From: an uncultured Verrucomicrobia subdivision 3 bacterium
Lineage (GTDB): Bacteria > Verrucomicrobiota > Verrucomicrobiia > Limisphaerales > UBA8199
Assembly (NCBI GenBank): GCA_903913865.1
Contig: CAIWMU010000214.1
Span: forward strand, 69,386 to 133,385
Direction of reading: 5' to 3'
DNA length: 64,000 bases
The notes below the pieces were generated by a model, which made no database searches, was not told where the DNA came from, and saw only the letters and a program-made list of their open reading frames with translations. The position numbers were made by a program, and so were the translations under genes. Shown piece after piece: positions 2,539 through 46,620 of this stretch. Positions within the stretch are counted from its first letter, which is position 1, and each line of letters begins with the position of its first letter.

Positions 2539-2551
2539 ACATTTTTAACCC

Positions 2552-8262: not shown

Positions 8263-9458
8263 ACGTATCAGGCCTCCCCTCCAACACGGCCACACAATCC
8301 GACCACACCCAGCCAACCCCAAACCCCAACGCAGAACTGCCCAGTTTTGCTGACTTTATCGATATCGCCGTGGCGCCCTCGAAAGATCGCTCCACGGATA
8401 ACGACCCTGATGATCTGGAGGAGGAGGAGGAAAAACACACACAAGCTGGAGACTGCCTCGATCCGATCCGCCTTCTCTGCACCCTCCCCCCGCCTCCGCC
8501 CGTTGTCCCGCAATCTCCCCAAGCCGCATCCCCCGCCCCCCGACAACCCACCATCCTTGAACAGGCCCCCAAGGAGGAGGCTGACAGCGCGACAAAGGAG
8601 GAACCCCCAACCGCAGCACCCTCCCCGGTCACCAACCCGGCCAGCCAAAAGAAACTGGAGGCCCCACCCGGTCCGGTGGTCCCCCAAAACACCGCCAAAG
8701 AGCCGCCACCAACTGCATCCCCTCCAACCAGCCAATCCTCTGTTGAGAACCAGCCCCCCCTCCCGGAGCCACCGCCAGCGCCACCGATTGATGGCATGGG
8801 GATTGCTCAATCAGGAGTAGCTGTGAAATTGATGCAACAACTGGACGAAACTACCCTGTCGGGGCAGAAAAATCTGCCGACAGCCCTGTTTCTCGGGGAG
8901 GCAAGCCGCAAAGCCGCCCGACTGGCCGATGTTTCGAGCCCGTTTGTGGCCGCAAGCCTGACCTCTGGAACCGGCACCACCCCCCAGGAAACCCCTGAGG
9001 TGATCCCCGCAGCCCTGACATCCCTCCATCGTGTGGAACAGTTGGAAAAACTGCATGCCACCGCCACCGATTGTGCCCTGCTGCTAAGGCAGACAGGAAA
9101 AGAATCCGTTTCGGTGGTCATCAAGCCGGATGCGGGAACCGAGTTGCAACTGCATCTCAGGATGCGGGATGGCATTGTGGAAGCCACCGCCGAGATGCAC
9201 AAAGGGAGTTCAGCCGCCCTCGAAGCTGGCTGGAAGGAACTTCAACAGCGTCTGGAACGTCAGGGCATTCAGATCGCCCCCTTGGAAAACTCCCAGTCGT
9301 TCACGACGGGTGAGCGCGGAGAACACAAGCCGCAACGTCAGGACTCCACAGAGGTGGATCGATCCCTTCCCCTAAACCACCCGACACGCCACACCCAAGC
9401 CGGAGCCAGAAACCCGCAACCCGCCCCGACCAATCGCTCTTGCGAATACTGGGCCTGA
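8259..9458 (+). CDS. fliK: Flagellar hook-length control protein FliK
   Basis: Pro-rich central region. C-terminal Flg_hook-like block (VSVVIKPDAGTELQLHLRMRDGIVEATAEMH..AALEAGWKELQQRLERQGIQI). Position before flgD. Confidence 0.75.
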   Translation: MNVSGLPSNTATQSDHTQPTPNPNAELPSFADFIDIAVAPSKDRSTDNDPDDLEEEEEKHTQAGDCLDPIRLLCTLPPPPPVVPQSPQAASPAPRQPTILEQAPKEEADSATKEEPPTAAPSPVTNPASQKKLEAPPGPVVPQNTAKEPPPTASPPTSQSSVENQPPLPEPPPAPPIDGMGIAQSGVAVKLMQQLDETTLSGQKNLPTALFLGEASRKAARLADVSSPFVAASLTSGTGTTPQETPEVIPAALTSLHRVEQLEKLHATATDCALLLRQTGKESVSVVIKPDAGTELQLHLRMRDGIVEATAEMHKGSSAALEAGWKELQQRLERQGIQIAPLENSQSFTTGERGEHKPQRQDSTEVDRSLPLNHPTRHTQAGARNPQPAPTNRSCEYWA

Positions 9459-9470
9459 ACCAGCCAATTT

Positions 9471-9896
9471 ATGAGCACCATCACCGCCACATCCCAGATT
9501 TCCAGCAACTTAACAGGATCCGACCCCAGCCGCCTCCCCACCCAGACCCTCGGGCAGGATGATTTTCTGAAGCTGCTCGTCGCCCAGATGTCGACACAGG
9601 ACCCTCTTAATCCGACGAAGGACAGCGACTTCATCGCCCAGATGGCCCAGTTCAGCTCACTTGAGCAGGCAAAAAACATGGGAAATCAGCTGGGGTCCCT
9701 CCGCCTGGAACAGGAATTTCTTCAGGGCAACCAACTCATTGGTCGCGCAGTGGAACTGGAGGACGGTGGCAGCACCCTCAGCGGGGTGGTTTCTGCCATG
9801 CGAATTGAGGCAGGGACGCCGAAAATCGAAGTCAACGGTCACCTCTACGATCTCACCCAGGTGCGCTCGGTTGCGGTGCCCACAACCAACGGCTAA
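9471..9896 (+). CDS. flgD: Flagellar hook-capping protein FlgD
   Basis: QDDFLKLLVAQMSTQDPLNPTKDSDFIAQMAQFSSLEQ is the FlgD signature. Confidence 0.9.
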   Translation: MSTITATSQISSNLTGSDPSRLPTQTLGQDDFLKLLVAQMSTQDPLNPTKDSDFIAQMAQFSSLEQAKNMGNQLGSLRLEQEFLQGNQLIGRAVELEDGGSTLSGVVSAMRIEAGTPKIEVNGHLYDLTQVRSVAVPTTNG

Positions 9897-29658: not shown

Positions 29659-30522
29659 CTAGGCGTAAAGGACCGCCTTGAGATCCCGAACCATCACCCC
29701 GATGAACGGGTAGCGGCGCTCCGGATCGCGGTCAATGCACCGCAAAATCACCTTTTCCAGTCCCGGCGGCATCTCAGGATTGTAGCCGCTGGGCGGCACA
29801 AATTCCGAACGGTCCAACTGGCGGCGGAGAATCTCGCCAGGCGTCTCCCCGGGGAATGCCTTCTGGTTGGTCAGCAACTCAAAAGCAGTCACGCCAAACG
29901 CAAAAATATCGACGGGAAACGAAATCGGCTCCCCCTGCAATTGCTCCGGTGCCATGTAGGAGGGGGTCCCGGGATTCTTGCCTGACTGTTTTTTGGGCTT
30001 TTCAGGGATGGGCTGTGCCAGATCGAAATCAACCAGTCGCAGGCTTCCGTTGGGGGTCACCAACACATTCTCAGGCTTGAAATCGAGGTGCATGTAGCCA
30101 TTGTCATGCATGTGCTCCAGCGCCCCGGCCATGTCCAGAAGGATCTGAGCCACATTCTCCAGAAGCACCGCGTCGTGTCGGGAGTAAAGCTCCTTCAAAT
30201 TGGCCGCTTCCACATACTCCATCTGGCAATAGAGCCGCCCATCCGCCTTGCCGTGCTCATGGTAACCGATGATGGATGGATGGTCGCTGATGCTGGCAAG
30301 AATTTCGCACCCCCGCACAAACCGCCGACGCGCACCAAAGTCGAACCTGAAGCGCTCGTGCATCCGCCGGATGGCATACGACTTCCCATGGCTGTCCGTG
30401 CCCAGCCAGATATCCGCCATGCCCCCGCTGTTGATATGCTCCTGCAGATAAAAACGGCCAAACGGCCCGGGGGCGGGCGTTGCTGCACTGTTACTCGTTG
30501 AACTCTTTCCGAACACGATCAA
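29659..30522 (-). CDS. Ser/Thr protein kinase-like protein (kinase domain only, atypical VAIK and DFG motifs)
   Basis: HLDFKPENVLV catalytic loop, GTPSYMAPEQ activation segment, G-loop-like INSGGMADIW. The beta3 motif reads YAIRRM (Arg where Lys is expected). DFG reads DFD. Confidence 0.85.
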   Translation of the reverse strand: MIVFGKSSTSNSAATPAPGPFGRFYLQEHINSGGMADIWLGTDSHGKSYAIRRMHERFRFDFGARRRFVRGCEILASISDHPSIIGYHEHGKADGRLYCQMEYVEAANLKELYSRHDAVLLENVAQILLDMAGALEHMHDNGYMHLDFKPENVLVTPNGSLRLVDFDLAQPIPEKPKKQSGKNPGTPSYMAPEQLQGEPISFPVDIFAFGVTAFELLTNQKAFPGETPGEILRRQLDRSEFVPPSGYNPEMPPGLEKVILRCIDRDPERRYPFIGVMVRDLKAVLYA

Positions 30523-30647
30523 CCTTCTACCAGATTCATCCCATTCCTGCCATAGAATTGAGTGACCCGTTCACCTTCAACGCAAACCTTCCTCGAGAAG
30601 TCCACCTCCAACTCATTGGCATTGCCAAGCACTCCGGGGGATCTACG

Positions 30648-33095
30648 ATGGATTGTGTGACGAACCGCTTGCCATCGCGCCGCCGTGTGGATCAGGACAT
30701 ACCAAAAGGGATTCCTCTTCGGAACATCCCACCGGTGCCGAGGCTGTCCACTCCACCCCTCCTGATACGCGCTGGCCTTCTCATTCTCGGTCTCCTTCTC
30801 GCCGCCTCCGATCCCCTCCTTGGCCAAACGCGCCTGAAGCTGTCCGCCATCACCCCGGGAACTGAAAAGGTTCAGCTGGTCTATAACGGGGACTTCCAGT
30901 CCCAGCAGGCCGCCACCGGCGGCCGCTTCCTGCCCGCCAACTGGCCCGGCTCCCCGGATGTGGTCACAGGCGCGGGCTCCAACAGCGTGCCCCAAAACGG
31001 CGGCCGCATCGCCTGCGCTCGCGTGGATGGCGGTGCCGCCGCCGCAGGTGTCAACCGCACCCTGACGCTCAGCGCCAACACCAGCTACGTCCTCAGCGCC
31101 TACCTCTGGAATCTTGGCGATGCCACAAACCGCGTAAACACGGTTATCGACATGAACGACGTCTCCGGCGAACCGCAGATGGCGCTCGGTTCCGGTGATT
31201 CCGAGGCCGATCTTGGCTACTTTGTCTATCGAACCTTCAACACAGCCACCACGGGAACCAACGTCACCCTGCGCCTGTTCTACGACGGCTTGGCAGGCAC
31301 CGGTGCTGCCACCCGGTTTTATCCCTTCGCCGCCCAGTGGGACAACATCGCGATCACCCGGTCGGTCGATTTCATCGCCCCACAGACCCGGGCCTCCGGT
31401 GGCAACCTGCGCCCGACGGTCCGGGTCGAAAGCCCCGTTGACTCCACCACAGCCCTCCTCGCCTCGACCCCTCCGGTCCTTTCCATTTCAGCCACCGCCG
31501 GCGATTACGATGGATCCATCACGAACGTCGATTTCTTCGCCGGGGCAACACGACTCGGATCAACGCGCAACCCGCCCTACACCGTTCTGTGGACCAATCC
31601 CGCTTCCGGCCCCTGCGTTTTGACGGCTGTGGCGAGTGACAACCGGGGAGCCGCCACCCTCTCCGCACCGGTCGCCATCGTGGTCGCACTCCCCCGTCCT
31701 CCAGTGTCTCTCAGCATCGCCCGCTCCGGCTCCAACGTGCTCGTGTCATGGCCCACACAATCAACCGGACTTTTCCTCCAATCTGCCACCCTGACCGGTC
31801 CTACGCCTCCATGGCAACTGCTCACAAATCCAACCACCCTGAGTGCCGGGGTGAACCAGACCACTCTGCCCGCCCTGCCGGGACAGCGCCAACTCCGGCT
31901 CGGCCCGGATGTCTCCCCCTTCACCCTCGATCGCAAGCTGATGATGGGTTACCAGGGCTGGTTCGCCTGCCCGGGTGATGGCTCGCCGCTCAACCGCTGG
32001 GTTCACTGGTTCCGCAGTCAGACCCCTGTTGCAACCAACCTGACCGTGGACTTCTGGCCGGACATCTCCGAACTCGATGCCGATGAACTCCATGCCACGG
32101 GCATGACCCTCCCGGATGGATCCCCAGCCCGCCTCTACTCGGCCTTTAGTCAAAAGACGGTCGTTCGCCACTTCAAATGGATGAAGGAAAATCATCTCGA
32201 CGGCGTGTTTCTCCAGAGGTTCTCCTCGGAACTGTCCAGCTCCGACCTCCTGTTCCACCGGGACCGCGTCACTGAGAACGTCCGGGTGGGTGCTGAAACT
32301 CACGGGAGAATTTTTGCCATCATGTATGACATCTCAGGCCAGCCGCAGGCGACCCTCCAGCAGACGCTCACCAACGATTGGATCCACCTCATCACAGCCC
32401 TCCAGATCACCAACAGTCCCTCCTACGTCCACCACAACGGCAAGCCGGTCGTCGCCATCTGGGGCTTCGGCTTCACAGATCGCACCGGCACCCCGCAGGA
32501 CGCCCAGATCGTGATCAATTTCTTCAAGGCCGCCGGTTGCACCGTCATGGGAGGCGTGCCCACCTACTGGCGCACCCTCACTGGCGATTCCCAGATAGCC
32601 GCCACCTGGGCTCCCGTTTACCGGTCCTTCGACATCATAAGCCCGTGGGCGGTGGGCCGCTACGGCACCCAGGCCGAGGCGGACACCTTCAAGCAAAACC
32701 TTATTGTCCCGGATCTGGCTGAGACCAGGCTCCGGGGTATCGCCTACATGCCGGTGATCTTCCCTGGGTTTTCCTGGCGCAACCTCACAGCCGGAACCCT
32801 CAACCAGATGCCACGCAACGGCGGGGACTTCTACTGGCGCCAGGCCTGCAACGCGATTTCCGCCGGTTGCACGATGATTTATGGAGCCATGTTTGACGAA
32901 ATGGACGAAGGCACCGCGATGCTCAAGATGGCACCCACATCCGCCACACTTCCAACCCAGGCCACCCTCGTTCCCCTCAACATCGACGGCCGCACCCTGA
33001 ACAGTGACTGGTATCTGCGCGTGGCCGGAGAAGCCACCAAAATGCTCCACCGCGAGATTCCCTTCACCAACTCGATCCCCATAAAGTCGCCATGA
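30648..33095 (+). CDS. Secreted multidomain protein with C-terminal TIM-barrel glycoside-hydrolase-like domain
   Basis: Internal ATG 30648 precedes a TM/signal segment (LLIRAGLLILGLLLAAS). N-terminal carbohydrate-binding-like and Ig-like regions. C-terminal MMGYQGWFACPGDG...VAIWGFGF...YGAMFDEMDEGTAMLK pattern as seen in proteins annotated as xylosidase/arabinosidase-like hydrolases (from memory; family not verified). Confidence 0.6.
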   Translation: MDCVTNRLPSRRRVDQDIPKGIPLRNIPPVPRLSTPPLLIRAGLLILGLLLAASDPLLGQTRLKLSAITPGTEKVQLVYNGDFQSQQAATGGRFLPANWPGSPDVVTGAGSNSVPQNGGRIACARVDGGAAAAGVNRTLTLSANTSYVLSAYLWNLGDATNRVNTVIDMNDVSGEPQMALGSGDSEADLGYFVYRTFNTATTGTNVTLRLFYDGLAGTGAATRFYPFAAQWDNIAITRSVDFIAPQTRASGGNLRPTVRVESPVDSTTALLASTPPVLSISATAGDYDGSITNVDFFAGATRLGSTRNPPYTVLWTNPASGPCVLTAVASDNRGAATLSAPVAIVVALPRPPVSLSIARSGSNVLVSWPTQSTGLFLQSATLTGPTPPWQLLTNPTTLSAGVNQTTLPALPGQRQLRLGPDVSPFTLDRKLMMGYQGWFACPGDGSPLNRWVHWFRSQTPVATNLTVDFWPDISELDADELHATGMTLPDGSPARLYSAFSQKTVVRHFKWMKENHLDGVFLQRFSSELSSSDLLFHRDRVTENVRVGAETHGRIFAIMYDISGQPQATLQQTLTNDWIHLITALQITNSPSYVHHNGKPVVAIWGFGFTDRTGTPQDAQIVINFFKAAGCTVMGGVPTYWRTLTGDSQIAATWAPVYRSFDIISPWAVGRYGTQAEADTFKQNLIVPDLAETRLRGIAYMPVIFPGFSWRNLTAGTLNQMPRNGGDFYWRQACNAISAGCTMIYGAMFDEMDEGTAMLKMAPTSATLPTQATLVPLNIDGRTLNSDWYLRVAGEATKMLHREIPFTNSIPIKSP
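32990..33093 (+). repeat. Direct repeat copy 1 (104 bp): functional 3' end of the hydrolase-like CDS
   Basis: Hand alignment with 34837-34940 gives 101/104 identical. Confidence 0.9.
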
Positions 33096-34084
33096 GATCA
33101 CCAATCACCAAAACGACTCTCCCGGCTCGAAAAATTAACATAGTTCGCCCCCCAATGGGTCAGAAACACCCCGCCAAAGTTCACCACGATCCCGCGATTC
33201 CGCCTAACACAGCTTCCAGCCCAATACCCTTGCCCGAGAGTGAGGCGCGCCAACGAGCAAGGCGTAAGAGAGCTAAAGCTCTAGCCGCCTCGCTTGCTGA
33301 GTGGAAAGGTAGCACGGGGGCATTTGTTCGGCATCTCGATCGCCAAGGAGTTGACTACCTGTCCTTTTCACATGTCAGTTCCTTGGAATTTTGCCCCTAC
33401 CGCTATTACCTTGAGTTTGTTCGCCGTATCCGGCTCGTCCCCCAACCGGATTACTTTATCAAAGGCCGAATTCTTCATGAGGCACTGGCAAGGTACTACC
33501 GAGGCTTTGGGCGTGGTCGCGTCCCAACTCCTGACATGCTTCACAAATTCATCGACCGCCACAATCGCGCAGATGGGAGCCAACTGAAGAACGCGATAAC
33601 ACTCGCCATTCAAAATGTTCGGCAGGGCTGGGAAGTTGTGGCGGTTGAGAAGCCCTTCATAACGGACCTCGGGGGCAGCCTGCCTCCATGCTTGGGTGTG
33701 GTTGATCTTATCCTCCGCAAAAACAATTGCTACGCGGTGGTGGATCACAAATCGTCTCGAAGGTTTACGGACGACGATGCGGATGGATTACAGCTCGAAA
33801 TCTACCGTAACTTTGTTCGCCAATCCTACAAGGCTGAGGTTTGTATGGCTTTCTATGATGAATACCGCTGGGTTGATGACTTGGGGCGGATCAGGAAGCC
33901 CGCTTTTCGGAGAGTCCTTTTAGAATATAACCTGCAGGAGTGGGAATCAGTATTGAACCGTCTTGTCAGGGCGCACGAGGAAATGCTCGCGATTCGAAAG
34001 GGTGGAAGAGCATCAGGCTCGGGGAATTGCTATATGTGCCCCTTCAAAGTGCGATGCCCAAAGGCGTCCACTTCAAGGTGGTAA
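33092..34084 (+). CDS. Cas4/RecB-like PD-(D/E)XK nuclease with four-Cys (Fe-S type) motif
   Basis: N-terminal Cys (SLEFCPYRYYL) plus C-terminal CYMCPFKVRC. GRILHEAL. D...D-x-K core (GVVDLIL...YAVVDHKSS). QLEIY (QxxxY). The ATG overlaps the upstream TGA. ATG 33155 is a possible alternative start. Confidence 0.75.
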   Translation: MRSPITKTTLPARKINIVRPPMGQKHPAKVHHDPAIPPNTASSPIPLPESEARQRARRKRAKALAASLAEWKGSTGAFVRHLDRQGVDYLSFSHVSSLEFCPYRYYLEFVRRIRLVPQPDYFIKGRILHEALARYYRGFGRGRVPTPDMLHKFIDRHNRADGSQLKNAITLAIQNVRQGWEVVAVEKPFITDLGGSLPPCLGVVDLILRKNNCYAVVDHKSSRRFTDDDADGLQLEIYRNFVRQSYKAEVCMAFYDEYRWVDDLGRIRKPAFRRVLLEYNLQEWESVLNRLVRAHEEMLAIRKGGRASGSGNCYMCPFKVRCPKASTSRW

Positions 34085-34197
34085 AGCTGTATTTTATCCT
34101 TAATCAGAATCATGGCAGAAGGAAGCCGGGCCAGGTTGAACCAGTTCTTGTATCCAATGAACCAATCCAGTAGTCTTCACCATACAACCGTCAAAAC

Positions 34198-34818
34198 ATG
34201 AAAAAGAAGAAAAATGTTTTTTGTCTTGAAGGAGACTGGTGGAATAACCTTTTAAAGCCATCGACAGTTGAGCCTATCCTGAACCTCCTCGCAAAAGCAG
34301 ACGGATACCGCTTCAAGTATATTCACCGGAATGTATCCAACCGTCCTACGTTTGATCAATTCGTCACAAAGTGGACAAAAAAGCAGTTCAATGATTATCC
34401 GATTCTGTATCTCGCATTCCATGGCGCAGAAGGCCAATTAGAGGTCGGGGCTAATAGTCATCCGGAAAACACCGTGGATCTCAAGGAACTCGGAGACCTA
34501 CTTGAAGGAAAATGTGAGGGTAGGGTGATTGTCTTTGGAAGTTGTAAAACGGTGGGGGTCCATGGATCGCACCTCAATACATTCCTCAAAAGGACCCGTG
34601 CTTTGGCGGTATGTGGCTACGTTCGCACAGTCGATTGGGTTCTCTCTACAGCATTCGAGTTGATCCTAATGGAGTTCCTTCAACGTAACGCCCTGACAAG
34701 TGCAGGACTCGGTGCGGTTCAGAAAAAGATCAATAAAATGATCAAAACTACCAGCAAGACACTTGGTTTCAGAATGGTCATTAAGCCCCGCCCAAAAACG
34801 AGGACCAAGGGTCGATGA
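34198..34818 (+). CDS. Uncharacterised 206-aa protein with caspase/CHAT-like His...Cys strand-end pattern
   Basis: Hydrophobic strand plus HG (PILYLAFHGAEG) and hydrophobic strand plus SC (RVIVFGSCKT). Lys-rich tail. Very AT-rich codons relative to the window. No signal peptide. Confidence 0.6.
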   Translation: MKKKKNVFCLEGDWWNNLLKPSTVEPILNLLAKADGYRFKYIHRNVSNRPTFDQFVTKWTKKQFNDYPILYLAFHGAEGQLEVGANSHPENTVDLKELGDLLEGKCEGRVIVFGSCKTVGVHGSHLNTFLKRTRALAVCGYVRTVDWVLSTAFELILMEFLQRNALTSAGLGAVQKKINKMIKTTSKTLGFRMVIKPRPKTRTKGR

Positions 34819-34836
34819 TAGGTAATCCATTAACAA

Positions 34837-34940
34837 CCGCACCCTGAACAATGACTGGTATCTGCGCGTGGCCGGAGAAGCCACCAAAATGCTCCACCGC
34901 GAGATCCCCTTCACCCACTCGATCCCCATAAAGTCGCCAT
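34837..34940 (+). repeat. Direct repeat copy 2: orphan duplicate of the hydrolase gene's last 34 codons, ending in TAG
   Basis: RTLNNDWYLRVAGEATKMLHREIPFTHSIPIKSP* versus RTLNSDWYLRVAGEATKMLHREIPFTNSIPIKSP* in copy 1. Confidence 0.9.
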
Positions 34941-35051
34941 AGGGAAATTCTCCCTGCCATCAAAGCACCCCCTCCCCAAAATCCGAACAGGCTGCCCCAA
35001 GCCCGCTGACCTCGAACCCTTTCCGGATTCAACGCTGCGGGAATTCCCACC

Positions 35052-35160
35052 CCCAAGCCGGAGGCTTGAAAGCTTGTAGCCGGTGGTTGAGGAGCCACGC
35101 GACGACACCACCGGTCAACGACCAATACGAACCCCGACCCCGGCAGGGGTCGCAGCGCAC
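35052..35160 (+). repeat. Degenerate repeat, copy A (core CCAAGCCGGAGG...GCCGGTGGTTG...GGTCGCAGCGCA)
   Basis: Shares ordered blocks with 35341-35430. A partial inverted core (TCAACCACCGGC) sits at 35485-35496. Confidence 0.5.
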
Positions 35161-35340
35161 TGTGCCGGAAACACAGTGCGAATTCATTTGCGACGTGTTA
35201 CACAAACCAACTGGCTCCCATTCTGAGCCCCGCTGCCGGGTCCGGACGATTTCCGCTGCGGACCTGGGGCGTTGCTCTCGCTCACCCCCTCGCTTACAGG
35301 CTGGCACCCCCTCCCCTGGGAACCGGGAATGCCCGATGCA

Positions 35341-35430
35341 CCAAGCCGAAGGAAGGTGCCAGGTTGCAGCCGGTGGTTGGGCGCGGGGACACGACCGAAG
35401 CGCAACCGATCCAGAAGGGATCGCAGCGCA
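35341..35430 (+). repeat. Degenerate repeat, copy B
   Basis: CCAAGCCGAAGG...GCAGCCGGTGGTTGG...GGATCGCAGCGCA, in the same block order as copy A. Confidence 0.5.
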
Positions 35431-35613
35431 TCCACAGGCGGAGGTTTGTCGGACAATTCCTCCAGTGTGCCGCCTGACTGCCATTCAACCACCGGCCACA
35501 GGCCAAACACCAAATGGGCAACCAAGTCCCATCAGCAACCCCAACTCAGCATTCTCCGGATTCACCGTTTCAGGAGTTCTGAGTCATCCGGGTGTTGCGG
35601 AACGGGCCCGCCC

Positions 35614-35808
35614 CTATTTCGGCATGTTTTCAGCCTCCAGGGTGTTTGCCAGATCCTTTTCAGCGAGAACCCAGTCTTCAAGAGTGAGATTGTGATCCGA
35701 TAATTTGTCGCGGAACAATTCAAAGGCATGTTGCCGCACCATGGGCCGGGTGATGCCCGGAGTGAACGGCATCGGTTGTTCCAGTTTCTGCACGATTTGT
35801 TCGTTCAT
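35614..35808 (-). CDS. Small DUF2934-like protein (64 aa)
   Basis: Internal ATG preceded by GGAAGGAG. VRQHAFELFRDK....LEDWVLAEKDL matches the RAYELW...DW..AE..L pattern of DUF2934 (from memory). The longer ORF in the track would overlap crcB. Confidence 0.55.
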   Translation of the reverse strand: MNEQIVQKLEQPMPFTPGITRPMVRQHAFELFRDKLSDHNLTLEDWVLAEKDLANTLEAENMPK

Positions 35809-35938
35809 AGCTGCTCCTTCCATTATCAACATACTCCCCTCCCGACATCCTGCAACCGGTCTTTCAACTTCTTTCCGCGCCGCTTGCGGCTTGCCTTGCG
35901 GGCCAATTTGGGAAACCGTTGACGCGCAGGCTTGGATT

Positions 35939-36337
35939 ATGTGGAATGCGTTTTTGATCTTCCTCGGCGGCGGACTTGGCAGCGTGGCGAGGTGGCTCGC
36001 CTCGGGCCTGGTGGCGACCCGCTTTGGTGAGGCTTTTCCCTGGGGCACCCTCGTCGTGAATGTGACCGGCTCCTTCGTGATCGGCTTCTTCGCCGCATGG
36101 ACGGGTCCCGGTGGCCGCTCCACAGTTCCTCCAGCCTTCCGCCAGTTTTTCATGCTCGGCATCTGCGGCGGCTACACAACCTTTTCCTCGTTCAGCCTGC
36201 AGACTCTCTCCCTGATGCAGTCCGGGGAATGGTGGCGCGCCGGGGGCAATTGCATCCTATCCGTGGTCCTTTGCCTGATCGGAGTCTGGCTGGGGCACGC
36301 CGCAGCTCTGGCACTATCCGGCGGCAGGGGGGCTTGA
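35939..36337 (+). CDS. crcB: Fluoride channel CrcB/FluC
   Basis: MWNAFLIFLGGGLGSVARWL...FPWGTLVVNVTGSFVIGFF...LGICGGYTTFSSFSLQT has the typical CrcB motifs. Internal ATG 35939. Confidence 0.9.
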   Translation: MWNAFLIFLGGGLGSVARWLASGLVATRFGEAFPWGTLVVNVTGSFVIGFFAAWTGPGGRSTVPPAFRQFFMLGICGGYTTFSSFSLQTLSLMQSGEWWRAGGNCILSVVLCLIGVWLGHAAALALSGGRGA

Positions 36338-36353
36338 GTTGTTTGAACCGCCG

Positions 36354-38522
36354 CTACTCTGCTGAGAGCTTCGCCAGGACTTCATCCTCTGGAACACGCT
36401 CATCCAGCAGGGCAAAAAGCGACGGTTGCCATGGATCCAGCGTGAACGGGATGCGGTCCAGCAAACCTAGATATTTCTGCCTGCGCAGATCGTAAACATG
36501 CCTGGATTTGGCAAGTGCCCCGGTCAGTTCGACCGGCTTTTCTAGAACCTCGTTCCCTCCCGCACGCTTCAACTCCTCGCTCATCTGGTAATCCGCATTC
36601 CGCTCCACCGCCACGATCAGCCCCCGGCCCACCCGGTAACGATGCACACGGGCCCGGGCCTCCACCGGCAGCACGAAAACACGTTCCAACGCGCGGAGCC
36701 GCTCCTGCATCCAGCGGGGAAGCGCTCCGGCCCCATCCACTGCCGCCCCCAGCCGCAGAGCGGGGTAGCCTGCCACATCGGTATCCAGCCCGCTGTGCAC
36801 AGCCCCGCCACCCGCGGCAAAAACACTTCTTATCCCCGTGGCGCCCGGCGGCAGGACCGGCGCAGCAAGCCTCCCGGTGAGCACCCGCCCGTGCTCATCA
36901 AAACAGCCGGGGGAACCATTCCAAAGCACTCCACGTGGTTCACCAGACCGGGCCAGGGTGGACAGGGCCCGGATCTGCCCGGCCTCCACCTCTGAAAGCG
37001 CCCACGAGGAGGGCATCACAAGCACTGCCGGACCGGCCTGAGTCAGCATTCCGGCCTCGAGTTGCGCCGATGAGATGAACCGGGGGCTATATCCCACATC
37101 CTGCAGGGCCTTGAGCCACCCGTTCCGGACCTTCGCCAGCTGGTTCTGCCCCGCCTCGTAACTGGAGAAGCGCCGCAACCAGCTGGATCCATCCACGGTG
37201 GATTCCAGCAGCCAGTCCACCTGGATGCTGGCCTGCGAGTAGTGGATGTAAATCGGATCAAACTCAGGCTTCGCCCGCAGGATGATCCGCGCCAGCGGCG
37301 AGGTCATCTCCCGGAGGACGGGTGCCAGTGCCACGCCTTTCGGTGTGAGCCGGTAATCCTCACTCTTCCAGTCGATGCAATCCTCGCTCCACCAGACGAT
37401 GCAGCCGCGATCCCCCTCAAGGAGCAGGTGCCAGAGACGACGCCGGGCCTCCCGGGTTTCCTTCTCGAAAACCGTCGTCAGAATCGGCTTGCCCGGCATG
37501 AAGGACCCAAAGATTTCGCGGGCGTTGCCGATGTCATACGGCTCAATCCAGTCCACCGCCTGGGATAGCCGCCACAGATCGTAGCCGCCAAACGCATGCG
37601 GCATCTGGGTCCCCTCGATCCCCACCGGGGTCTGCGGATCCAGTTCCCTGATGGACTGCCGCAGTTCATCCAATACTCCGGACAGCGAGGAATCCATGTA
37701 GCTCCGGAAATCGGCCCAGGGTGAGAAGTTCCAGCGGGTGGTGGATTCGCGGGCGGTCAGCGGGTCGAATTTCAGCGCCTGCAGCTGCTGCCAGTCGGGT
37801 TGGCCGCGTGGCTGGGCCTGGCCGCTGGCCATCCGGTTCTTGATCTGGTCGGTCGTGAAGGGCTTCACCTCCTCCCACGATTTGAACCCCGTCTCCCAGG
37901 CCGCGTTGAGCGCCTCAACCGTGCCGTGGTGCTGCTTCAGCCAGATGCGGAATCGGGCGAGGGTGAGCGGGTTGAAATCGTAATCAAATGGATTTGCCGA
38001 AATCGTGGTGGAAAGCTCATCCCGCAGATCGTAGGCAAGAGGCTGGTTCCCCCTGTTCTTCCGCACGATCCCTGACGCCTCCTTCCGCGCCCAATCGCGC
38101 CATTCCGGATCATCCAGGCAATGATCCCGGACGAGCGCCGTCTCCGGCCGGCCATCCCGGGTCCACTGGGTCACAAATTTGTCCCAGTCCTGCACGTTCG
38201 ACCGGAACTTGAGGCACAACCCACGGTTCACGATGTTCTCGACGTAATAAGGGAACCGGTTCGAGACAAGCAGACCGGGATCCCCATCGCCAAAGACCAT
38301 CGCCGTGTTGATCCCCATCTCGCGAAGGCGCTCGACAAACAGCGGAAACTTCCCCGGCTGTTTCAACGCGGCATCCCCCACCCACATGATGGTGCGGTAG
38401 TCCTGCCACGGCCTCAGCTGCCCTTCCCCTGCCCCGCATGCCGGAGCGCCCAACAGCAGCAGAATCAGGACTCCCCAGCTCCCCGCCCGCTTTCCCGAAT
38501 TCTGCGCCTTGCTCATCGCCAT
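36354..38522 (-). CDS. Secreted glycoside-hydrolase-like protein (GH42 beta-galactosidase-like features)
   Basis: Signal peptide (WGVLILLLLGAPACGA). FRIWLKQHHGTVEALNAAWETGFKSWEEV resembles the GH42 family motif. Family not verified. Confidence 0.45.
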   Translation of the reverse strand: MAMSKAQNSGKRAGSWGVLILLLLGAPACGAGEGQLRPWQDYRTIMWVGDAALKQPGKFPLFVERLREMGINTAMVFGDGDPGLLVSNRFPYYVENIVNRGLCLKFRSNVQDWDKFVTQWTRDGRPETALVRDHCLDDPEWRDWARKEASGIVRKNRGNQPLAYDLRDELSTTISANPFDYDFNPLTLARFRIWLKQHHGTVEALNAAWETGFKSWEEVKPFTTDQIKNRMASGQAQPRGQPDWQQLQALKFDPLTARESTTRWNFSPWADFRSYMDSSLSGVLDELRQSIRELDPQTPVGIEGTQMPHAFGGYDLWRLSQAVDWIEPYDIGNAREIFGSFMPGKPILTTVFEKETREARRRLWHLLLEGDRGCIVWWSEDCIDWKSEDYRLTPKGVALAPVLREMTSPLARIILRAKPEFDPIYIHYSQASIQVDWLLESTVDGSSWLRRFSSYEAGQNQLAKVRNGWLKALQDVGYSPRFISSAQLEAGMLTQAGPAVLVMPSSWALSEVEAGQIRALSTLARSGEPRGVLWNGSPGCFDEHGRVLTGRLAAPVLPPGATGIRSVFAAGGGAVHSGLDTDVAGYPALRLGAAVDGAGALPRWMQERLRALERVFVLPVEARARVHRYRVGRGLIVAVERNADYQMSEELKRAGGNEVLEKPVELTGALAKSRHVYDLRRQKYLGLLDRIPFTLDPWQPSLFALLDERVPEDEVLAKLSAE

Positions 38523-41272: not shown

Positions 41273-41548
41273 ACGGATGCTGGCCGATCATGCCCCGAAC
41301 GTCAACCGATCCCGGCACCCGCCGCAAAACGGCCCCCGGCGGACGCAAAACAGCCCTTTCTCCATGCCCGGCTTTGCTGCACCCTCCAATTACGCACGCA
41401 CACTCCAGAGAGGCCCCCCAGGACCGGCCGGGAGTGGACCGTTTATTTGGAACAGACCATCTGAATTATGACCTTGATGCTCACACGCATGTTGCCGCAG
41501 GCACCCTTCACGGGAATCCGCCGGATCCGGCCATCCGCCAGCCACCTC

Positions 41549-43948
41549 ATGCGGTCCCTCACTTTGTTCCTGCTTCTGCTTCCGGCCCTCTCCCGGGCTG
41601 CGGACCCCGCACAAATCACCCACATCACCGACCCCGCCATGCCGGGCAAACTCTCCGTGGTGGTTGGCGATGGTTGGGATGTCCAGACCCCCACCCTGAA
41701 GGTGGTTTCCCTGAAAAACTCATCCCCGGGCGAGCCCGACTCCTCCCTCCCCCTTCTCGCAGGCAGGGAGCACAACCTTCCGGTCCTGAAGAAGGATCCC
41801 CAGACACTGGTGTGCGACCTGCCCTCAGGCAAATTTTCCGTTCTCGCCATTTCCGCCAAAAGTGCCGATGGGTGGGGCACCCCCCTGCTCGTCAACCGGG
41901 CCAAAATCCAATGGCTCTCCCGGGAGACCGCCCAACCCGGCTCGGTCGTCCGGGCGATTGGCCGCAATCTGGTAAACCTCGACCTCTATCCACAAACCGA
42001 CAAGGAGGGGCTGCCAACCGGATTCGACGGCTATCTGGAACATGCCGAAACCTCCATCCTCATCCAGCGGGATGCGCCCGGTGCCGCCACGCGGCAACCC
42101 TTCCTGCGCTGCAAGGTCCTCAAGCAGAGCGCCTATGATGTTCACTTCCTCCTGCCAGCGAATCTCGCGGAGGGTGACTACAAGGTGCATGCCCACAACG
42201 GGCTTGGAGGCCCGCACGGATGGTCCCAGCCGATGTTGCTCACGGTGAAGACCTCAAAACCCTGGCCCACCCGGATCTTCAATGTTGCAGACTACGGGGC
42301 CACCGGCCTCCCCCTCGGTTTCAAGGAGGGCTGGCACGATGACACCGCCGGCATCCAAAAAGCCCTCGAAGCCGCCAGGAACAATGGGGGCGGCATTGTC
42401 CTGCTTCCGCCGGGAAACTACTACGTCACCTCAACGCTCGTCATGCCCCCGTTCACCACCCTCCGTGGCGAAAGCCGGGAGAGATGCTGGATCTGGTTTC
42501 CTGACGGCATCGACCACGGAAAATACGGGGATCAGGAAACACCCAAAAAGGTGCAGGTCGGTATCCGGGGCATGTCCGATTTTTCAATCGGGAACCTCAG
42601 CATCCACTCCGTGTTCACACGATTGCTGGTGGCCGCGCCGCTCTCAAAAGACACCGCCAACACCTACGAGGATCTCGATCCGGGCCGGGCAGCCAACATC
42701 ACGATCACGAACTGCATGATCTTCCACGAGCCCACCTACCGCTACCACCACCGGAAGGAGGATGGATGGCTCAAAAACAGCAATCTCACCGATGAATCAT
42801 GGGGCATGATGGCGACCATCGCCCTGCGTGGGGACAACCTCAGCGTGACGGACTGCACCATCCGGGGCGGCGGCACGGCCATCGCCTTCCTGGCCTGCCG
42901 GTTCAGCACCGTGGCCAGAAACGAAATCCGGATGGGACGCAGCGGCAACGCCTTTGCCGCACGCGAAGGGGGCTACCCGGCACAACCGCTTCAGGAACGG
43001 AACGTTTTTGAGGACAACCGGATGTGGGCTGCCACGGAATTCGCCCACAGCGGATTCTGGTGCCACGCCACCAGCAGGAACTTCTACATCGCCCGGAACT
43101 CCCTGCAACTGGGCTGGAATTCAGATGCCGAAGGCCTCCTGTGGCACGGGTGGGGCCCGCAGCAGATCTTCACGGTCACCGGCGCCGATGCAAACACGGT
43201 GAGCATCGCCGCGAAGGACGACAAGGTGGGGGTGGATTGGGAGTGCGTGGTGGTGAAAGGCCGCGGGCTTGGCCAGAGGCGCATGATCAAGGCAATCAAC
43301 AGCAGCACTCTAACCCTCGATACCCCATGGGAGATCAGGCCGGATGCCGGGAGCAAGATCGCCACCCTCTACTGGCCATGCCACCGAGGCCATATCATCG
43401 TCGGCAACCAACTGCACGATACCGGGGCCGGCATCTTCAGCTGGGGCGACAATTACGACTGGATCGTGGACGGCAACCGGATGCAGCGGGGCGGCGGCGT
43501 CCAGTTCGACGTCTGCTCCTTTGTCGAATGGGGCTACCGGCCCTGGAGTGGCAATTTCTTCGTCCAGATTCTCAACAATACGGTGGATCAGGGGCGGTTT
43601 ATGGGCAAATACGTGGAGCAGAACTGGAATCTGGGCTACAGCGGCACCGGCTACTACCGCAAGGACCTGCGCGGTGCCGTTGGGGATCTGGGCCATGTCT
43701 TCCGGGGGAACCTCCACAAGAACGATTCCACGATCTCCTTCTGGGACCGTGTGCATGACAACACCCTGGAGCATTACGACGGACCGGTGGTGGATGTTGG
43801 GATGGTCGTCGAGGGGAACCGTTTCGAACATTCCAGGTTCGGCATCAGTGTGGGGGACGGTGTTTCCGGCGTCCTCCGGGCCAACCGCTTCAAGGGGGTC
43901 GACACACCAGTGCGCGTCAAGGACCACTCGGATGTCCTCCAAAAATAG
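41549..43948 (+). CDS. Secreted right-handed beta-helix protein (Pectate_lyase_3 / GH28-related N-terminal motif)
   Basis: ATG 41549 gives signal peptide MRSLTLFLLLLPALSRA (the ORF is open from 41468). FNVADYGATG...DDTAGIQKALEAARNNGGGIVLLPPGNYYVTSTL. Repeated beta-helix turns. Confidence 0.7.
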   Translation: MRSLTLFLLLLPALSRAADPAQITHITDPAMPGKLSVVVGDGWDVQTPTLKVVSLKNSSPGEPDSSLPLLAGREHNLPVLKKDPQTLVCDLPSGKFSVLAISAKSADGWGTPLLVNRAKIQWLSRETAQPGSVVRAIGRNLVNLDLYPQTDKEGLPTGFDGYLEHAETSILIQRDAPGAATRQPFLRCKVLKQSAYDVHFLLPANLAEGDYKVHAHNGLGGPHGWSQPMLLTVKTSKPWPTRIFNVADYGATGLPLGFKEGWHDDTAGIQKALEAARNNGGGIVLLPPGNYYVTSTLVMPPFTTLRGESRERCWIWFPDGIDHGKYGDQETPKKVQVGIRGMSDFSIGNLSIHSVFTRLLVAAPLSKDTANTYEDLDPGRAANITITNCMIFHEPTYRYHHRKEDGWLKNSNLTDESWGMMATIALRGDNLSVTDCTIRGGGTAIAFLACRFSTVARNEIRMGRSGNAFAAREGGYPAQPLQERNVFEDNRMWAATEFAHSGFWCHATSRNFYIARNSLQLGWNSDAEGLLWHGWGPQQIFTVTGADANTVSIAAKDDKVGVDWECVVVKGRGLGQRRMIKAINSSTLTLDTPWEIRPDAGSKIATLYWPCHRGHIIVGNQLHDTGAGIFSWGDNYDWIVDGNRMQRGGGVQFDVCSFVEWGYRPWSGNFFVQILNNTVDQGRFMGKYVEQNWNLGYSGTGYYRKDLRGAVGDLGHVFRGNLHKNDSTISFWDRVHDNTLEHYDGPVVDVGMVVEGNRFEHSRFGISVGDGVSGVLRANRFKGVDTPVRVKDHSDVLQK

Positions 43949-44085
43949 GCCTCAATTCCAGCATTGTCCCGGCCCGGTGTGTTGCCCCATATTCCATCCA
44001 CACAACTTGAAATTATGAGCATAGGCCGGAACGATCCCTGCCACTGCGGAAGTGGCAAAAAATATAAGAAGTGCTGCCAGGACAA
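43750..44085 (+). repeat. Tandem-duplication block, copy 1: last 66 codons of the beta-helix gene, the intergenic region and the first 23 codons of the SEC-C gene
   Basis: About 10 mismatches over about 333 nt against 45213-45545 (hand alignment). Confidence 0.9.
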
Positions 44086-45148
44086 GGATCGGGCGGAGGC
44101 GCAGGCCAAAAAGCAGGCGGCCACACCGTTGGCACGGTTTGATCCCGGCACGGATGATTCGTATCCCGCCAAGCTGGTTGACTACTATGCTTTCATATTG
44201 AATCCGCCATCTTCACGATCCTTCCACCCCTACTGCATCGAAAAAGCCCTTGGAGTCAATGGACAACGAAAAGCGTTTCTGGAGGAACGGTGTGACGTGG
44301 AACCCGGGAAGGATCTGACGGGGCTGGAAGGTAAATCGACAGAGGAACTCGAGGCCAGGCTCACCCTCCTCGTTCCCGGCTATGACCGGGAGAAACTTCT
44401 GGCAGAGGGTGTGGCCGGGGAATCCGTCTGGCTGAGGACTGCAAAGTGGCCGACAATCACCCCACTGGCTCCCGAAGACGCCCGGTTCATCGGGGCAGCC
44501 ACTTGCCATATCTATGCCAGGTTTTGCCCGGACAAACCATCACTGGAAATGGTGGATGACTGGGTCACCGAGGGGACCGCCCTCTGCCACATGAATCGTT
44601 CTTCAGAGGGCATTACTGTCTGGCAGAAGGCAATCCGATTCCTGGTTGGCAGGATCACCCCGGAAATGAAAAGCCTGCGAGAGGCAGGAGATGCGCTGTT
44701 TCCCAACATGTCCGGGACATTTGCGGAGGTGATCCGGGACTATTGTGATGTTCGCGGTTACACAGTCCAATGGAACGACGGGACTGAGGTTGAGGACTGG
44801 CACCTCATCCACCGGGTGGCCACAGCGTTTGCTGATGATCCTGCATGCATCGACATCGGCTGCTTTCTGGGGGACATCTATTACCATCAGAAACGGACTG
44901 AGGAGGGGGGAAAGTGGCTCACATTTCTCGCAGGGAAGCATCCAGACAAGGTCCCGCCACTCGTGTGCCTGCTGGGCAACCTGATCCACCAATTCGAAAA
45001 CGACAACTGCGACTATGCTGCCTTCAGGCGGGCCAGTGTGATGCTGGAGCAGGCCTTGGCGCGCCTCCCGCATGCCGAGACCAAGGTCCTAAGGGAATAC
45101 CCGGAGGACATTCGCCACATTCTCTCGACGGCCCCGCCCGATGCCTGA
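44015..45148 (+). CDS. SEC-C motif protein, paralog 1 (motif at extreme N-terminus)
   Basis: MSIGRNDPCHCGSGKKYKKCCQ is the SecA-C-terminal-type Zn motif. The rest is helical and has no recognised domain. Confidence 0.8.
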   Translation: MSIGRNDPCHCGSGKKYKKCCQDKDRAEAQAKKQAATPLARFDPGTDDSYPAKLVDYYAFILNPPSSRSFHPYCIEKALGVNGQRKAFLEERCDVEPGKDLTGLEGKSTEELEARLTLLVPGYDREKLLAEGVAGESVWLRTAKWPTITPLAPEDARFIGAATCHIYARFCPDKPSLEMVDDWVTEGTALCHMNRSSEGITVWQKAIRFLVGRITPEMKSLREAGDALFPNMSGTFAEVIRDYCDVRGYTVQWNDGTEVEDWHLIHRVATAFADDPACIDIGCFLGDIYYHQKRTEEGGKWLTFLAGKHPDKVPPLVCLLGNLIHQFENDNCDYAAFRRASVMLEQALARLPHAETKVLREYPEDIRHILSTAPPDA

Positions 45149-45212
45149 ACAGCGGGTCCCCGCCGGGGTTCCGATGCAGACCATGCAGCAGGGCATCGCC
45201 CATCCGGAAGCA

Positions 45213-45411
45213 TGTGCATGACAACACCCTGGAGCATTACGACGGACCGGTGGTGGATGTTGGGATGGTTGTCGAGGGGAACCGTTTCGAACATTCCAGG
45301 TTTGGCATCAGTGTGGGGGATGGTGTTTCCGGCCTCCTCCGGGCCAACCGCTTCAAGGGGGTCGAAACACCGGTGCGCGTCAAGGACCACTCGGATGTGC
45401 TCCAAAAATAG
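45213..45411 (+). pseudogene. Orphan duplicate of the 3' end of the beta-helix gene (66 codons plus TAG)
   Basis: HVHDNTLEHYDGPVVDVGMVVEGNRFEHSRFGISVGDGVSGLLRANRFKGVETPVRVKDHSDVLQK* versus the end of 41549-43948. No plausible N-terminal part. Confidence 0.85.
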
Positions 45412-45545
45412 GCCTCAATTCCAGCATTGTCCCGCCCCGGTGTGTTGCTCCATATTCCATCCACACAACTTGAAATTATGAGCATAGGCCGTAACGATCC
45501 CTGCCACTGCGGAAGTGGCAAAAAATATAAGAAGTGCTGCCAGGA
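45213..45545 (+). repeat. Tandem-duplication block, copy 2
   Basis: See 43750-44085. Confidence 0.9.
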
Positions 45546-46620
45546 ACTGGACAGGCAGGCGGACCACACTCCCCCGGAAACCCTCGACAACGCTTTTGAG
45601 GACGCACTTGAGTCCAAGTTCAGAGGGCAACCGGAGGAGGGGCCGGATCAGCGCCTGGTGCATCGCCTGCATCCAGACACGCAGGTGCTGGTTATGCACC
45701 CCTATTCGTACTGCAAGGTGGCTGCCATGCTCACTCAATTGTTGCTCGTGGCCCGCGATTCCAAATGGAACAAACGCATCGACTTTCTGACATCAATCCA
45801 GCGGCTCGGGACGGAGGAATTGGAGGAAAAGCTGCGCCCACTGGTTGTCGGCTATGATCGCAAACGACTCGTCGAGGAGGGCGTTGCGGGTGAGTCGGTC
45901 TGGTTCCGGACCGCCAAATGGCCCACGATCGGCACCCTCAGCCCCGAAGAGGCCATCAACATCAGGCTGGCCACGTGCGAACTCTGGAAACGGTTCTGCC
46001 CGGACAAGCCATCACTGGAGATGGTCGATGACTGGATCACGGACGGGGCAGCCTGCCATTTTGAGGACGACTACGAGGGGGCCTTGCAGGCCTGGTACAT
46101 GGCAATCGACTTCCTTCTGGACCGTGTCACCCCGGAGATGAAGTCCCTCAGGGAGGCGGGAGAGGTTTTGCTGCCGAACATGTTCAAGGGTCTGTCAGAA
46201 CTGGTCCTGGGTTTTGGGAAGGTTGCCACAGACTCTTCCCCGATGAAACTCGAACTGGCATTGGTTAGCATCGACCTTCTTAAGAGAGTGCTTGCCACTT
46301 TTCCGAACGATCCCGACGCCCCGATAATCATCTGTGAGCTCGGGGATATCTACTACCTGAACGGCCAGTTGGTGGAGGGTGATGAATTCTACACGCTTCA
46401 ACTCATGAACCATCCCGGAAACCTTCAAATCCTCTCCCGCTTTCTGGACCGGATCCTTGACTCATTCAAAGCCGGAGTGGGTATTGTTGCGTCGGCAAGG
46501 CGCGGCTTGCTGCTGGTGGAGCAGTTCCTGCCGGATGCCGTCGAGGGGGACGGGGTATCGTTGTGGGATTACCGTGATGAGTTGCGCGAAATCATCGCTG
46601 ACCACAGCGTTCCCCGTTGA
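45478..46620 (+). CDS. SEC-C motif protein, paralog 2
   Basis: The first 23 residues are identical to paralog 1. It then diverges, with conserved islands (EGVAGESVWFRTAKWPTI, RFCPDKPSLEMVDDW, TPEMKSLREAG). Confidence 0.8.
   Translation: MSIGRNDPCHCGSGKKYKKCCQELDRQADHTPPETLDNAFEDALESKFRGQPEEGPDQRLVHRLHPDTQVLVMHPYSYCKVAAMLTQLLLVARDSKWNKRIDFLTSIQRLGTEELEEKLRPLVVGYDRKRLVEEGVAGESVWFRTAKWPTIGTLSPEEAINIRLATCELWKRFCPDKPSLEMVDDWITDGAACHFEDDYEGALQAWYMAIDFLLDRVTPEMKSLREAGEVLLPNMFKGLSELVLGFGKVATDSSPMKLELALVSIDLLKRVLATFPNDPDAPIIICELGDIYYLNGQLVEGDEFYTLQLMNHPGNLQILSRFLDRILDSFKAGVGIVASARRGLLLVEQFLPDAVEGDGVSLWDYRDELREIIADHSVPR

Follow-up and report, generated by a model that had tools for sequence, protein, structure and literature searches.

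A hydrolase gene with a duplicated tail

The stretch of DNA analysed here (64,000 nucleotides, hereafter 'the window'; positions 69,386 to 133,385 of contig CAIWMU010000214.1, assembly GCA_903913865.1) comes from an uncultured Verrucomicrobia subdivision 3 bacterium and carries a two-gene islet directly behind a glycoside hydrolase gene. The islet is a segment of 1,743 nt (33094..34836 on the + strand, in window coordinates as are all positions below unless another contig is named). It encodes a Cas4-family nuclease and a protein of family DUF6642, and it is bracketed by two copies of the 3' end of the hydrolase gene. The host gene (30480..33095, + strand) is an open reading frame (ORF) with an uncertain start codon, encoding an 871-aa GH71/99-like glycoside hydrolase with an immunoglobulin (Ig)-like domain, to which its Pfam match, Big_7, corresponds. 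It has 5,698 homologues, the best at about 72% identity, and several of these, from Verrucomicrobiota, are named 'glycoside hydrolase family 71/99-like protein'. The surroundings are chromosomal, with genes for the flagellar proteins FlgK and FlgL, a Ser/Thr kinase, CrcB, a GH42-like protein, a phosphoesterase and efflux components.

The original prediction for this locus, drawn from the letters of the sequence, described a 104-bp direct repeat with three named differences, a first copy supplying the last 34 host codons plus the stop, a second copy forming an orphan tail that ends in TAG, and a cassette start codon overlapping the host stop. Alignment bears out each of these features. The two copies (32990-33093 and 34837-34940) are identical at 101 of 104 positions and differ by AGT/AAT, ATT/ATC and AAC/CAC (copy 1/copy 2). 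The match extends weakly leftward to 32981/34828, giving 113 nt at 94%, with a similarity of 5/9 directly left of the repeat. Copy 1 (32990..33093, + strand), which is attL-like (att denoting an attachment site), is the functional 3' end of the host gene and consists of the third base of a codon, the last 34 codons and the T of the TGA stop. The last base of the repeat is thus the first of the host stop codon, the insert supplies the remaining two, and the ATG of the first cassette gene, at 33092, overlaps this codon (ATGA). Copy 2 (34837..34942, + strand), attR-like, is the host-gene tail including its own stop, the TAG at 34940-34942. An in-frame TAA five codons upstream of that TAG closes the reading frame, so that copy 2 is an untranslated orphan.

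Two of the three differences are non-synonymous, and at both sites copy 1 has the residues that are seen in homologues (S before DWY; TNSIPI). Copy 2 has N and H at these sites; among 60 homologue tails listed, H occurs in none and N in one. Since the unusual residues sit in copy 2, and since this copy varies further between two related contigs discussed below (L002 and L057), the orphan tail is drifting.

The interior of the islet is compositionally foreign. Its G+C content is 0.495, against 0.602 +/- 0.019 in all other 1.74-kb segments of the window (z = -5.6, the lowest of all), and its tetranucleotide distance is high (z = 7.1; no other segment of the 98 compared deviates as much). At third codon positions, the cargo genes have a G+C content of 0.56 and 0.49, and the host gene one of 0.75. 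The AT-rich interior of the original prediction is thus real, although milder than its spot counts of single lines had suggested. The segment is compact: it contains only the two ORFs, matching PDDEXK_1 and DUF6642, of which the first starts at the left junction and the second stops 18 nt before the right junction.

As predicted, no integrase, transposase or excisionase is encoded by the two ORFs of the insert, no recombinase is found among the 13 flanking host ORFs scanned, and there are no inverted repeats at the insert boundaries. There is no tRNA gene near the cassette, the sole one of the window lying at 53238. Three candidate classes could be set aside on such grounds. A transposon or casposon is ruled out, as terminal inverted repeats, a transposase and Cas1 are all missing. 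An integron cassette is ruled out by the absence of an attC-like fold: on both strands, both repeat copies fold no better than shuffled single-stranded DNA (z from 0.05 to 1.34). A structured RNA at the locus was also considered, and no Rfam match was obtained in 30000-38000.

No sigma-70-like promoter was detected on the + strand of the inserted segment. Further downstream, a terminator-like hairpin (35156..35180, + strand), with a 9-bp stem followed by a T-rich tail, likely ends a transcription unit made of the hydrolase gene, the cassette and the orphan tail.

The two cargo genes

The first cargo gene (33092..34084, + strand) encodes a 330-aa iron-sulphur PD-(D/E)XK nuclease of the Cas4 family (PF12705, PDDEXK_1, E = 1e-19). 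An internal ATG at 33155 provides an alternative start, giving the 309-aa protein annotated in other assemblies. The N-terminal extension is basic and disordered, and is also present in a homologue of 63% identity (L058). We aligned the protein in two sets, of 4 and 40 sequences. The N-terminal cysteine (C101), in the motif EFCPYRYY, is invariant in both. The nuclease motifs D...D-H-K and Q-x3-Y are entirely invariant in the smaller alignment; in the larger one D218, K220, Q234 and Y238 are invariant, and D205 and H219 are conserved in at least 90% of sequences. Likewise, the C-terminal C-x2-C-x5-C is invariant in the smaller set, and in the larger one C313 is invariant and C316 and C322 reach at least 90%.

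An AlphaFold2 (AF2) model of the nuclease, with a predicted local distance difference test score (pLDDT) of 87.8, gave its best Foldseek matches to ACE1 (9iab/9iac), AdnAB, the Cas4 protein SSO0001, RecE and AddB, and lambda Exo is also among the structural neighbours. The Cas4-like nature proposed in the original prediction is thus upheld by the PF12705 match, by the full set of signature motifs and by the matches to Cas4 and ACE1 folds. The protein also matches the exonuclease family phrog_69. Its score against the Cas4 model TIGR00372 is 36.9 bits, below the cut-off of 65, and its PADLOC matches are weak, to the single-protein models of Cas4 and DruK only. Because no cas genes adjoin the cassette and the TIGR00372 score lies below the cut-off, we class the protein as a solo Cas4-like enzyme of the pfam12705 kind. 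Neither Argonaute nor CRISPR-cas genes were seen in the examined ORFs around the cassette, a search that did not extend to all 64 kb of the window. The subfamily is rare, with 74 clusters in a collection of 5.8 billion clusters, and has no relatives in IMG/VR or on plasmid records.

The second cargo gene (34198..34818, + strand) encodes a DUF6642 protein of 206 aa (PF20347, E = 2e-19), which the original prediction had described as a 'His/Cys protein'. This description holds: a 40-sequence alignment has His75-Gly76 and Cys116 as its invariant columns. The AF2 model (pLDDT 92) adopts a minimal caspase/CHAT-like fold, and Foldseek matches it with probability 1.0 to the SAVED-CHAT protein 8tl0 (which its PDB entry describes solely as an activated filament), to caspase-3 and to the TPR-CHAT protein of Craspase. 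H75 follows the strand at 69-73 and C116 the strand at 110-113, that is, consecutive core strands, as in caspases. DUF6642 is therefore a stand-alone, minimal version of the caspase/CHAT-like fold with an invariant His/Cys pair.

The DUF6642 family comprises 1,571 representative clusters. Of the 150 best representatives listed, nearly all consist of a bare protein of 190-210 aa, and the longer ones carry extensions without a Pfam match, except for a single fusion to an XRE-type helix-turn-helix (HTH) domain. This 266-aa HTH-DUF6642 protein (P0453) is the sole fusion to a recognised Pfam domain among those checked. On plasmid records we found one weak match only, of 28% identity, on a Brevibacterium plasmid. 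No paper mentioning DUF6642 was found in the literature.

Do the two genes form a unit? The pair recurs, in the same order, in a diverged relative (L051) whose nuclease is 47% and whose DUF6642 protein is 61% identical. Its recurrence is limited to this relative and to the lineage of the window, including the L057 contig. DUF6642 is missing beside most of the nuclease homologues, and the distant DUF6642 genes stand alone, amid housekeeping genes or in islands of restriction-modification (R-M) and Fic genes, with neither nuclease nor flanking repeats. The two genes are thus not generally paired, most homologues of either being without the partner, and DUF6642 genes are not as a rule flanked by repeats.

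A different partner accompanies the nuclease in two other loci: a 109-aa protein is encoded upstream of it in L016 (4311-4640 of that contig) and L023 (2440-2769), with 76% identity between the two. This protein has no Pfam, NCBIfam or PHROG match, and it was found in these two contigs only, so that no small partner is conserved across the nuclease loci. In these loci the nuclease and the 109-aa ORF make up another type of two-gene module.

As a separate observation, three contigs (L053-L055) carry a DUF6642 homologue of 62% identity that lacks the nuclease and is followed by an ankyrin-repeat gene, with a tRNA-Val(TAC) about 140 nt further.

Variation of the locus among related contigs

The arrangement of the window recurs, with 99.5-100% identity, in no fewer than 16 contigs, which stem from independent samples and record types. 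Some contigs, such as L001, span both junctions, and the three differences between the repeat copies are fixed in all contigs. Because the arrangement recurs in many independent samples and pipelines, it is not an assembly artefact. The original prediction had also considered that the repeats might belong to a larger segmental duplication. The interior of the insert shows no similarity to the DNA beyond either repeat, and it is not part of one.

An empty site, in which the hydrolase gene would end in a single tail, was looked for and none was found: every contig carrying the downstream DNA, recognised by a 151-aa ORF, also has the cassette. Exact look-ups with hydrolase fragments gave no match, and since a homologue search returned nothing closer than 72-73% identity, these searches provided no near-identical hydrolase allele for comparison. 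Any present-day mobility of the islet is thus putative.

One contig, L002, has a cassette 99.9% identical to that of the window and diverges from it at about 34933, its downstream DNA being unrelated. Its orphan tail shares the first two orphan-specific bases and then continues as a third tail variant (...ATCAAGGCACCGTAG). The unrelated DNA beyond it (1795-4843 of the contig) encodes, on the opposite strand, a protein with MBG-domain repeats that is longer than 896 aa. As this junction falls inside the repeat, copy 2 has itself been a site of recombination. Two explanations fit: the accretion of another element at the attR-like site, or a double crossover into a second strain with the orphan tail as its right arm. 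Both are compatible with the contig, which starts inside the cassette.

In a second contig, L001, the match to the window breaks off exactly at 35155, directly before the terminator-like hairpin. There, 215 nt downstream, this one strain has an inserted cluster (2391-9793 of the contig) with genes for a Dcm methylase, HATPase_c_3, Z1 and DUF4420 proteins. This insertion makes the region downstream of the hydrolase gene a variable hot spot.

Some sequence features of this downstream region may be recorded here. The 34943-35700 interval, from the orphan tail to crcB, consists of about 760 nt of GC-rich non-coding DNA. It contains three exact copies of GCCGGTGGTTG, at 35079 (+), 35369 (+) and 35486 (-), a number of matches that none of 100 shuffles reached, as well as paired repeats of about 20 nt at 35140/35411, and it has no Rfam match. 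Motifs resembling these recur in the unrelated flank of L002.

The L057 contig, which corresponds to 33048-34844 of the window, encodes a nuclease 100% identical at the protein level. The central 470 nt or so of its DUF6642 gene (34245-34713 in the window) are about 28% diverged, while the first 45 nt and the last 100 nt or so are near-identical to the window and the catalytic His and Cys are retained. Over the diverged tract, the synonymous divergence (dS) is about 1.3 and the ratio of non-synonymous to synonymous divergence (dN/dS) is 0.16. In situ diversifying selection is ruled out by this ratio and by the saturated dS. The tract is thus an imported allele, with recombination breakpoints inside the gene.

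Nuclease homologues in other islets

When species-representative genomes were scanned with the nuclease, six loci came up, at 35-54% identity, none of them in the genome of the window itself, and a search of metagenomes gave 31. About 40 loci were fetched overall, of which some 18 had enough DNA on both sides to be judged.

The closest genome homologue (52-54% identity) comes from a metagenome-assembled genome (MAG) of Pirellulales, L016. Here an islet of 2,025 bp, made of the nuclease and the 109-aa ORF described above, is bracketed by a perfect 54-nt direct repeat, which covers a tRNA-Arg(TCG) from its anticodon stem until one base beyond the 3' end. Of the two tRNA copies, the left one is intact and the right one is missing its 5' half, as seen on inspection of the acceptor-stem pairing, although ARAGORN still calls a tRNA there. 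The islet has a G+C content of 0.50-0.53 in surroundings of 0.59-0.61, a cytochrome c protein and NfeD flank it, and the 9-kb contig carries no integrase.

At a second locus, L038, an intact tRNA-Pro(CGG) stands on one side of the nuclease and two partial 5' copies of this tRNA on the other, the first of 36 nt (97%) ending in the anticodon loop and the second of 53 nt (91%) including the -10 box. This islet is also AT-richer and integrase-less. A truncated DNA methyltransferase gene adjoins the nuclease, for which reason we see the islet as a decayed remnant. Three further loci have a tRNA close by: a tRNA-Pro(GGG) stands about 20-90 nt upstream of the nuclease in L018 and L032, and a tRNA-Pro about 120 nt downstream in L046, whose layout resembles that of L038. 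Overall, a tRNA occurs within about 150 nt of the nuclease at 5 of the approximately 40 loci.

A related situation is seen in a Pelolinea MAG (L019, 4212-9136), where four 15-mers resembling the 3' end of a tRNA-Val, at 4212, 4312, 9022 and 9122, bound an integrase-less island of 4.7 kb with genes for an NACHT-like NTPase and a radical-SAM/SPASM protein. The nuclease homologue stands 1 kb beyond this island, adjoining PIN and HTH-Peptidase_M78 genes. More generally, defence-type genes are frequent near the homologues, including type I R-M, Fic, DUF5655, WYL, PIN and HTH-M78.

Repeats of other kinds were observed at two loci. A 62-nt direct repeat (95%) in L044 (5815-10792) brackets 4.9 kb with a GC-rich nuclease gene, and the bracketed segment also holds a truncated, N-terminal duplicate of the nuclease (7174-7449). 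Arrays of repeats of about 260 nt lie on both sides of the nuclease gene in L042 (4000-7167).

No integrase-bearing relative of these elements was found in the genome, metagenome, viral and plasmid collections, which were queried with the cargo and the tail, not with integrases. No copy of the hydrolase tail is present in IMG/VR.

Origin of the islet

Our favoured reading, to which we give about an even chance of being right, is that the islet is an integrase-less miniature element akin to a cis-mobilizable element (CIME), carrying a candidate conflict module, that entered by Campbell-type integration and whose recombinase was lost or acts in trans. The original prediction had recognised the geometry of a site-specific integration in which the target gene recovers its 3' end, and the observed arrangement does match Campbell-type integration, with a repeat that stops at the stop codon. 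Tyrosine-integrase att sites classically leave repeats whose boundaries fall in anticodon loops or at the 3' ends of genes. The repeat of the window, with its end at the stop codon, follows the same logic.

Under such a scenario, a circular DNA carrying the last 104 bases or so of the GH71/99-like hydrolase gene would have undergone one crossover with the chromosomal gene, placing 1.74 kb of AT-richer, foreign DNA directly behind the hydrolase coding sequence. Copy 1 would then have regenerated a working 3' end, its stop completed as TGA, and a second tail copy with a TAG end would have been displaced as copy 2, which is no longer translated and drifts. By analogy with the tRNA-flanked relatives, the recombinase would most likely be a tyrosine integrase, provided in trans or lost from a larger ancestor. 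Spread between close strains could also proceed by homologous recombination, with the hydrolase gene and the orphan tail as arms. As the cassette has no detectable promoter, we propose that it is probably read through from the hydrolase gene, whose stop the nuclease start overlaps.

What would such an islet carry? From the structural models we infer a nuclease acting on DNA ends and a minimal caspase-like cysteine protease. Their folds, the neighbourhoods of their homologues and the Dcm/HATPase/Z1/DUF4420 cluster located nearby in one strain suggest a role in defence: the pair is most likely a two-gene conflict module, be it for anti-phage or anti-plasmid defence or of an addiction type, rather than integration machinery.

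Several observations weigh against this account of the islet. Neither an empty site, nor an excised circle junction, nor a cognate integrase was found in our searches. There is almost no non-coding DNA at the ends of the islet, so a lambda-type attP with arm sites would overlap coding sequence. The orphan copy has the unusual residue at both non-synonymous differences, a pattern that fits simple decay after duplication under any mechanism. About 15 of the 18 or so nuclease loci that could be judged have neither a flanking repeat nor a tRNA, and the L016 and L023 modules share their two ORFs only, with no terminal sequences conserved between contexts. Neither cargo family turned up on phage or plasmid records, apart from the DUF6642 match on the Brevibacterium plasmid, and PADLOC has no model for DUF6642 or for the nuclease-DUF6642 pair. 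Finally, the window contains a second, different tail duplication, indicating that processes that are not site-specific also make orphan gene tails here.

This second duplication is a 346-nt direct repeat (43737-44082 and 45200-45545, 95.7%). It duplicates the last 212 nt, including the TAG, of an 826-aa pectate-lyase-like gene (41468-43948), together with the spacer and the first 119 nt or so of a SEC-C-motif gene. It brackets one SEC-C paralogue (A, 43964-45148) and leads into another (B, 45427-46620), the bodies of the two paralogues being only about 67% identical. This looks like a tandem or unequal recombination with mosaic divergence, and not like site-specific integration.

Could the islet itself have arisen in a comparable way? 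A one-off recombination accident is, in our opinion, an unlikely origin, yet one to be taken seriously. Foreign DNA carrying a homologous hydrolase tail would have entered, for instance by transformation, and been joined by homology-facilitated illegitimate recombination, with one homologous crossover in the tail and one illegitimate join at 34836/34837, or else by unequal recombination. The islet would then have no mobility of its own and would have spread later only via flanking homology. The lack of a recombinase and of an empty site agrees with such an event, as does the SEC-C duplication. The 5/9 similarity left of the repeat could be a junction microhomology, the L057 contig shows recombination importing diverged tracts into the cassette, and the L002 junction is explicable by a double crossover with the orphan tail as right arm. 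However, the cassette repeat ends exactly at a stop codon, whereas the SEC-C repeat continues into the next gene, and the islet is tightly trimmed to two ORFs. In addition, homologous nucleases recur in repeat-bracketed islets at tRNAs with boundaries typical of att sites, which would be unlikely for independent accidents.

The same recurrence could be turned into another proposal, in which the Cas4-like nuclease is itself the mobility enzyme of a new class of recombinase-free mini-elements, each carrying a 50-100-nt copy of its target end. The nuclease would process the element's own ends, and the RecA or annealing functions of the host would then carry out a homology-guided, 'ends-in' single crossover that duplicates the homology segment. 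The small gene, DUF6642 here and the 109-aa ORF in L016 and L023, would be an exchangeable cargo or a cofactor. Indeed, the nuclease is the sole gene common to the three bracketed, integrase-less islets (window, L016 and L038), which occur in three phyla, at three targets and with repeats of 104, 54 and 36-53 nt. Though rare, its subfamily is found near tRNAs at the five loci mentioned above. Among its structural neighbours are two recombination exonucleases, RecE and lambda Exo, as well as the nuclease domains of AddB and AdnAB, and a homology-based crossover would accommodate both the varying repeat lengths and the place of the L002 junction. We nevertheless regard this proposal as quite improbable. 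We know of no PD-(D/E)XK or Cas4 enzyme that acts as sole integrase. Most homologues have no flanking repeats and resemble ordinary resident genes, no conserved element ends were found, the boundaries of the tRNA repeats (anticodon loop, 3' end) fit tyrosine integrases, and the L038 islet, with its truncated methyltransferase, resembles a decayed remnant of something larger. If true, nuclease-driven integration would be a new mechanism of DNA mobility.

Finally, an assembly artefact or a part of a larger segmental duplication is scarcely credible: four contigs (L003, L007, L008 and L057) do start or end inside repeat copies, but the full arrangement was assembled identically in many samples by different pipelines, some contigs spanning both junctions, with an interior unlike the DNA beyond either repeat and three fixed copy differences.

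Returning to the reading of an att-flanked miniature islet, its mobilisation in trans would mean that integrase-less elements of this type reach down to two-gene units of 1.7 kb, that they occur in Verrucomicrobiota, Planctomycetota and Chloroflexota, and that the tail of a protein-coding gene can be used as an att site. Island-finding tools that require an integrase miss such elements entirely. The cargo, for its part, is a compact test case for two unexplained families, the solo pfam12705 Cas4-like nucleases and DUF6642, which together are a candidate for a new two-gene conflict system.

Comparison with known systems

CIMEs are elements that have lost their integration and transfer genes and kept attL and attR (PMC5704250). 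The window islet shares with them the attL/attR-like flanks, the regenerated 3' end of the target, the small size and the absence of integration and transfer genes. It differs in that the searches brought up no related element that has an integrase and uses the same target, its mobilisation in trans being putative. Moreover, the host is an uncultured member of the Verrucomicrobiota and no Firmicute, the targeted gene encodes a glycoside hydrolase, and the islet measures only 1.74 kb, with practically no non-coding DNA at its ends.

Islands, prophages and satellites that target tRNA or tmRNA genes by means of tyrosine integrases have the same 3'-end-duplicating repeats and foreign composition as the window islet. 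The L016 and L038 islets also share with them a location at tRNA genes, their repeats being bounded by the anticodon loop or the 3' end. All three islets differ from these islands by the lack of an integrase and by their size, 1.7-2 kb as opposed to several kb to more than 100 kb, and the window islet differs further in its protein-coding target. Integron gene cassettes, like the window cassette, are promoterless, compact, placed directly behind an expressed gene and bounded by repeated sequence. In the window, however, the repeated sequence belongs to the coding part of the upstream gene and forms no attC-like hairpin, and no integron integrase was seen.

As regards the cargo, the nuclease resembles the solo or mobile genetic element (MGE)-associated pfam12705 Cas4-like nucleases (PMC5704561), with which it has in common the RecB-type motifs, the four-cysteine cluster and the absence of linkage to cas1 and cas2. 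The closest solved fold is that of ACE1, a Cas4-family enzyme that partners Argonaute immunity (PMC12094033), but the sequence identity is just 12-13%, and the window protein has a basic, disordered N-terminal extension and a caspase-like DUF6642 protein as its partner. DUF6642, in turn, is comparable to the proteases of SAVED-CHAT and of TPR-CHAT/Csx29, the latter from the type III-E Craspase: they have the same fold, with the His/Cys dyad after strands 3 and 4, and they too occur in conflict-type gene neighbourhoods. Unlike them, DUF6642 is a bare protease core of 200 aa with neither a SAVED nor a TPR sensor, and its partner here is a nuclease. Set beside these systems, the locus is best filed as a new form of a familiar type: an integrase-less, att-flanked miniature islet at the tail of a protein-coding gene, with an undescribed combination of Cas4-like and caspase-like cargo.

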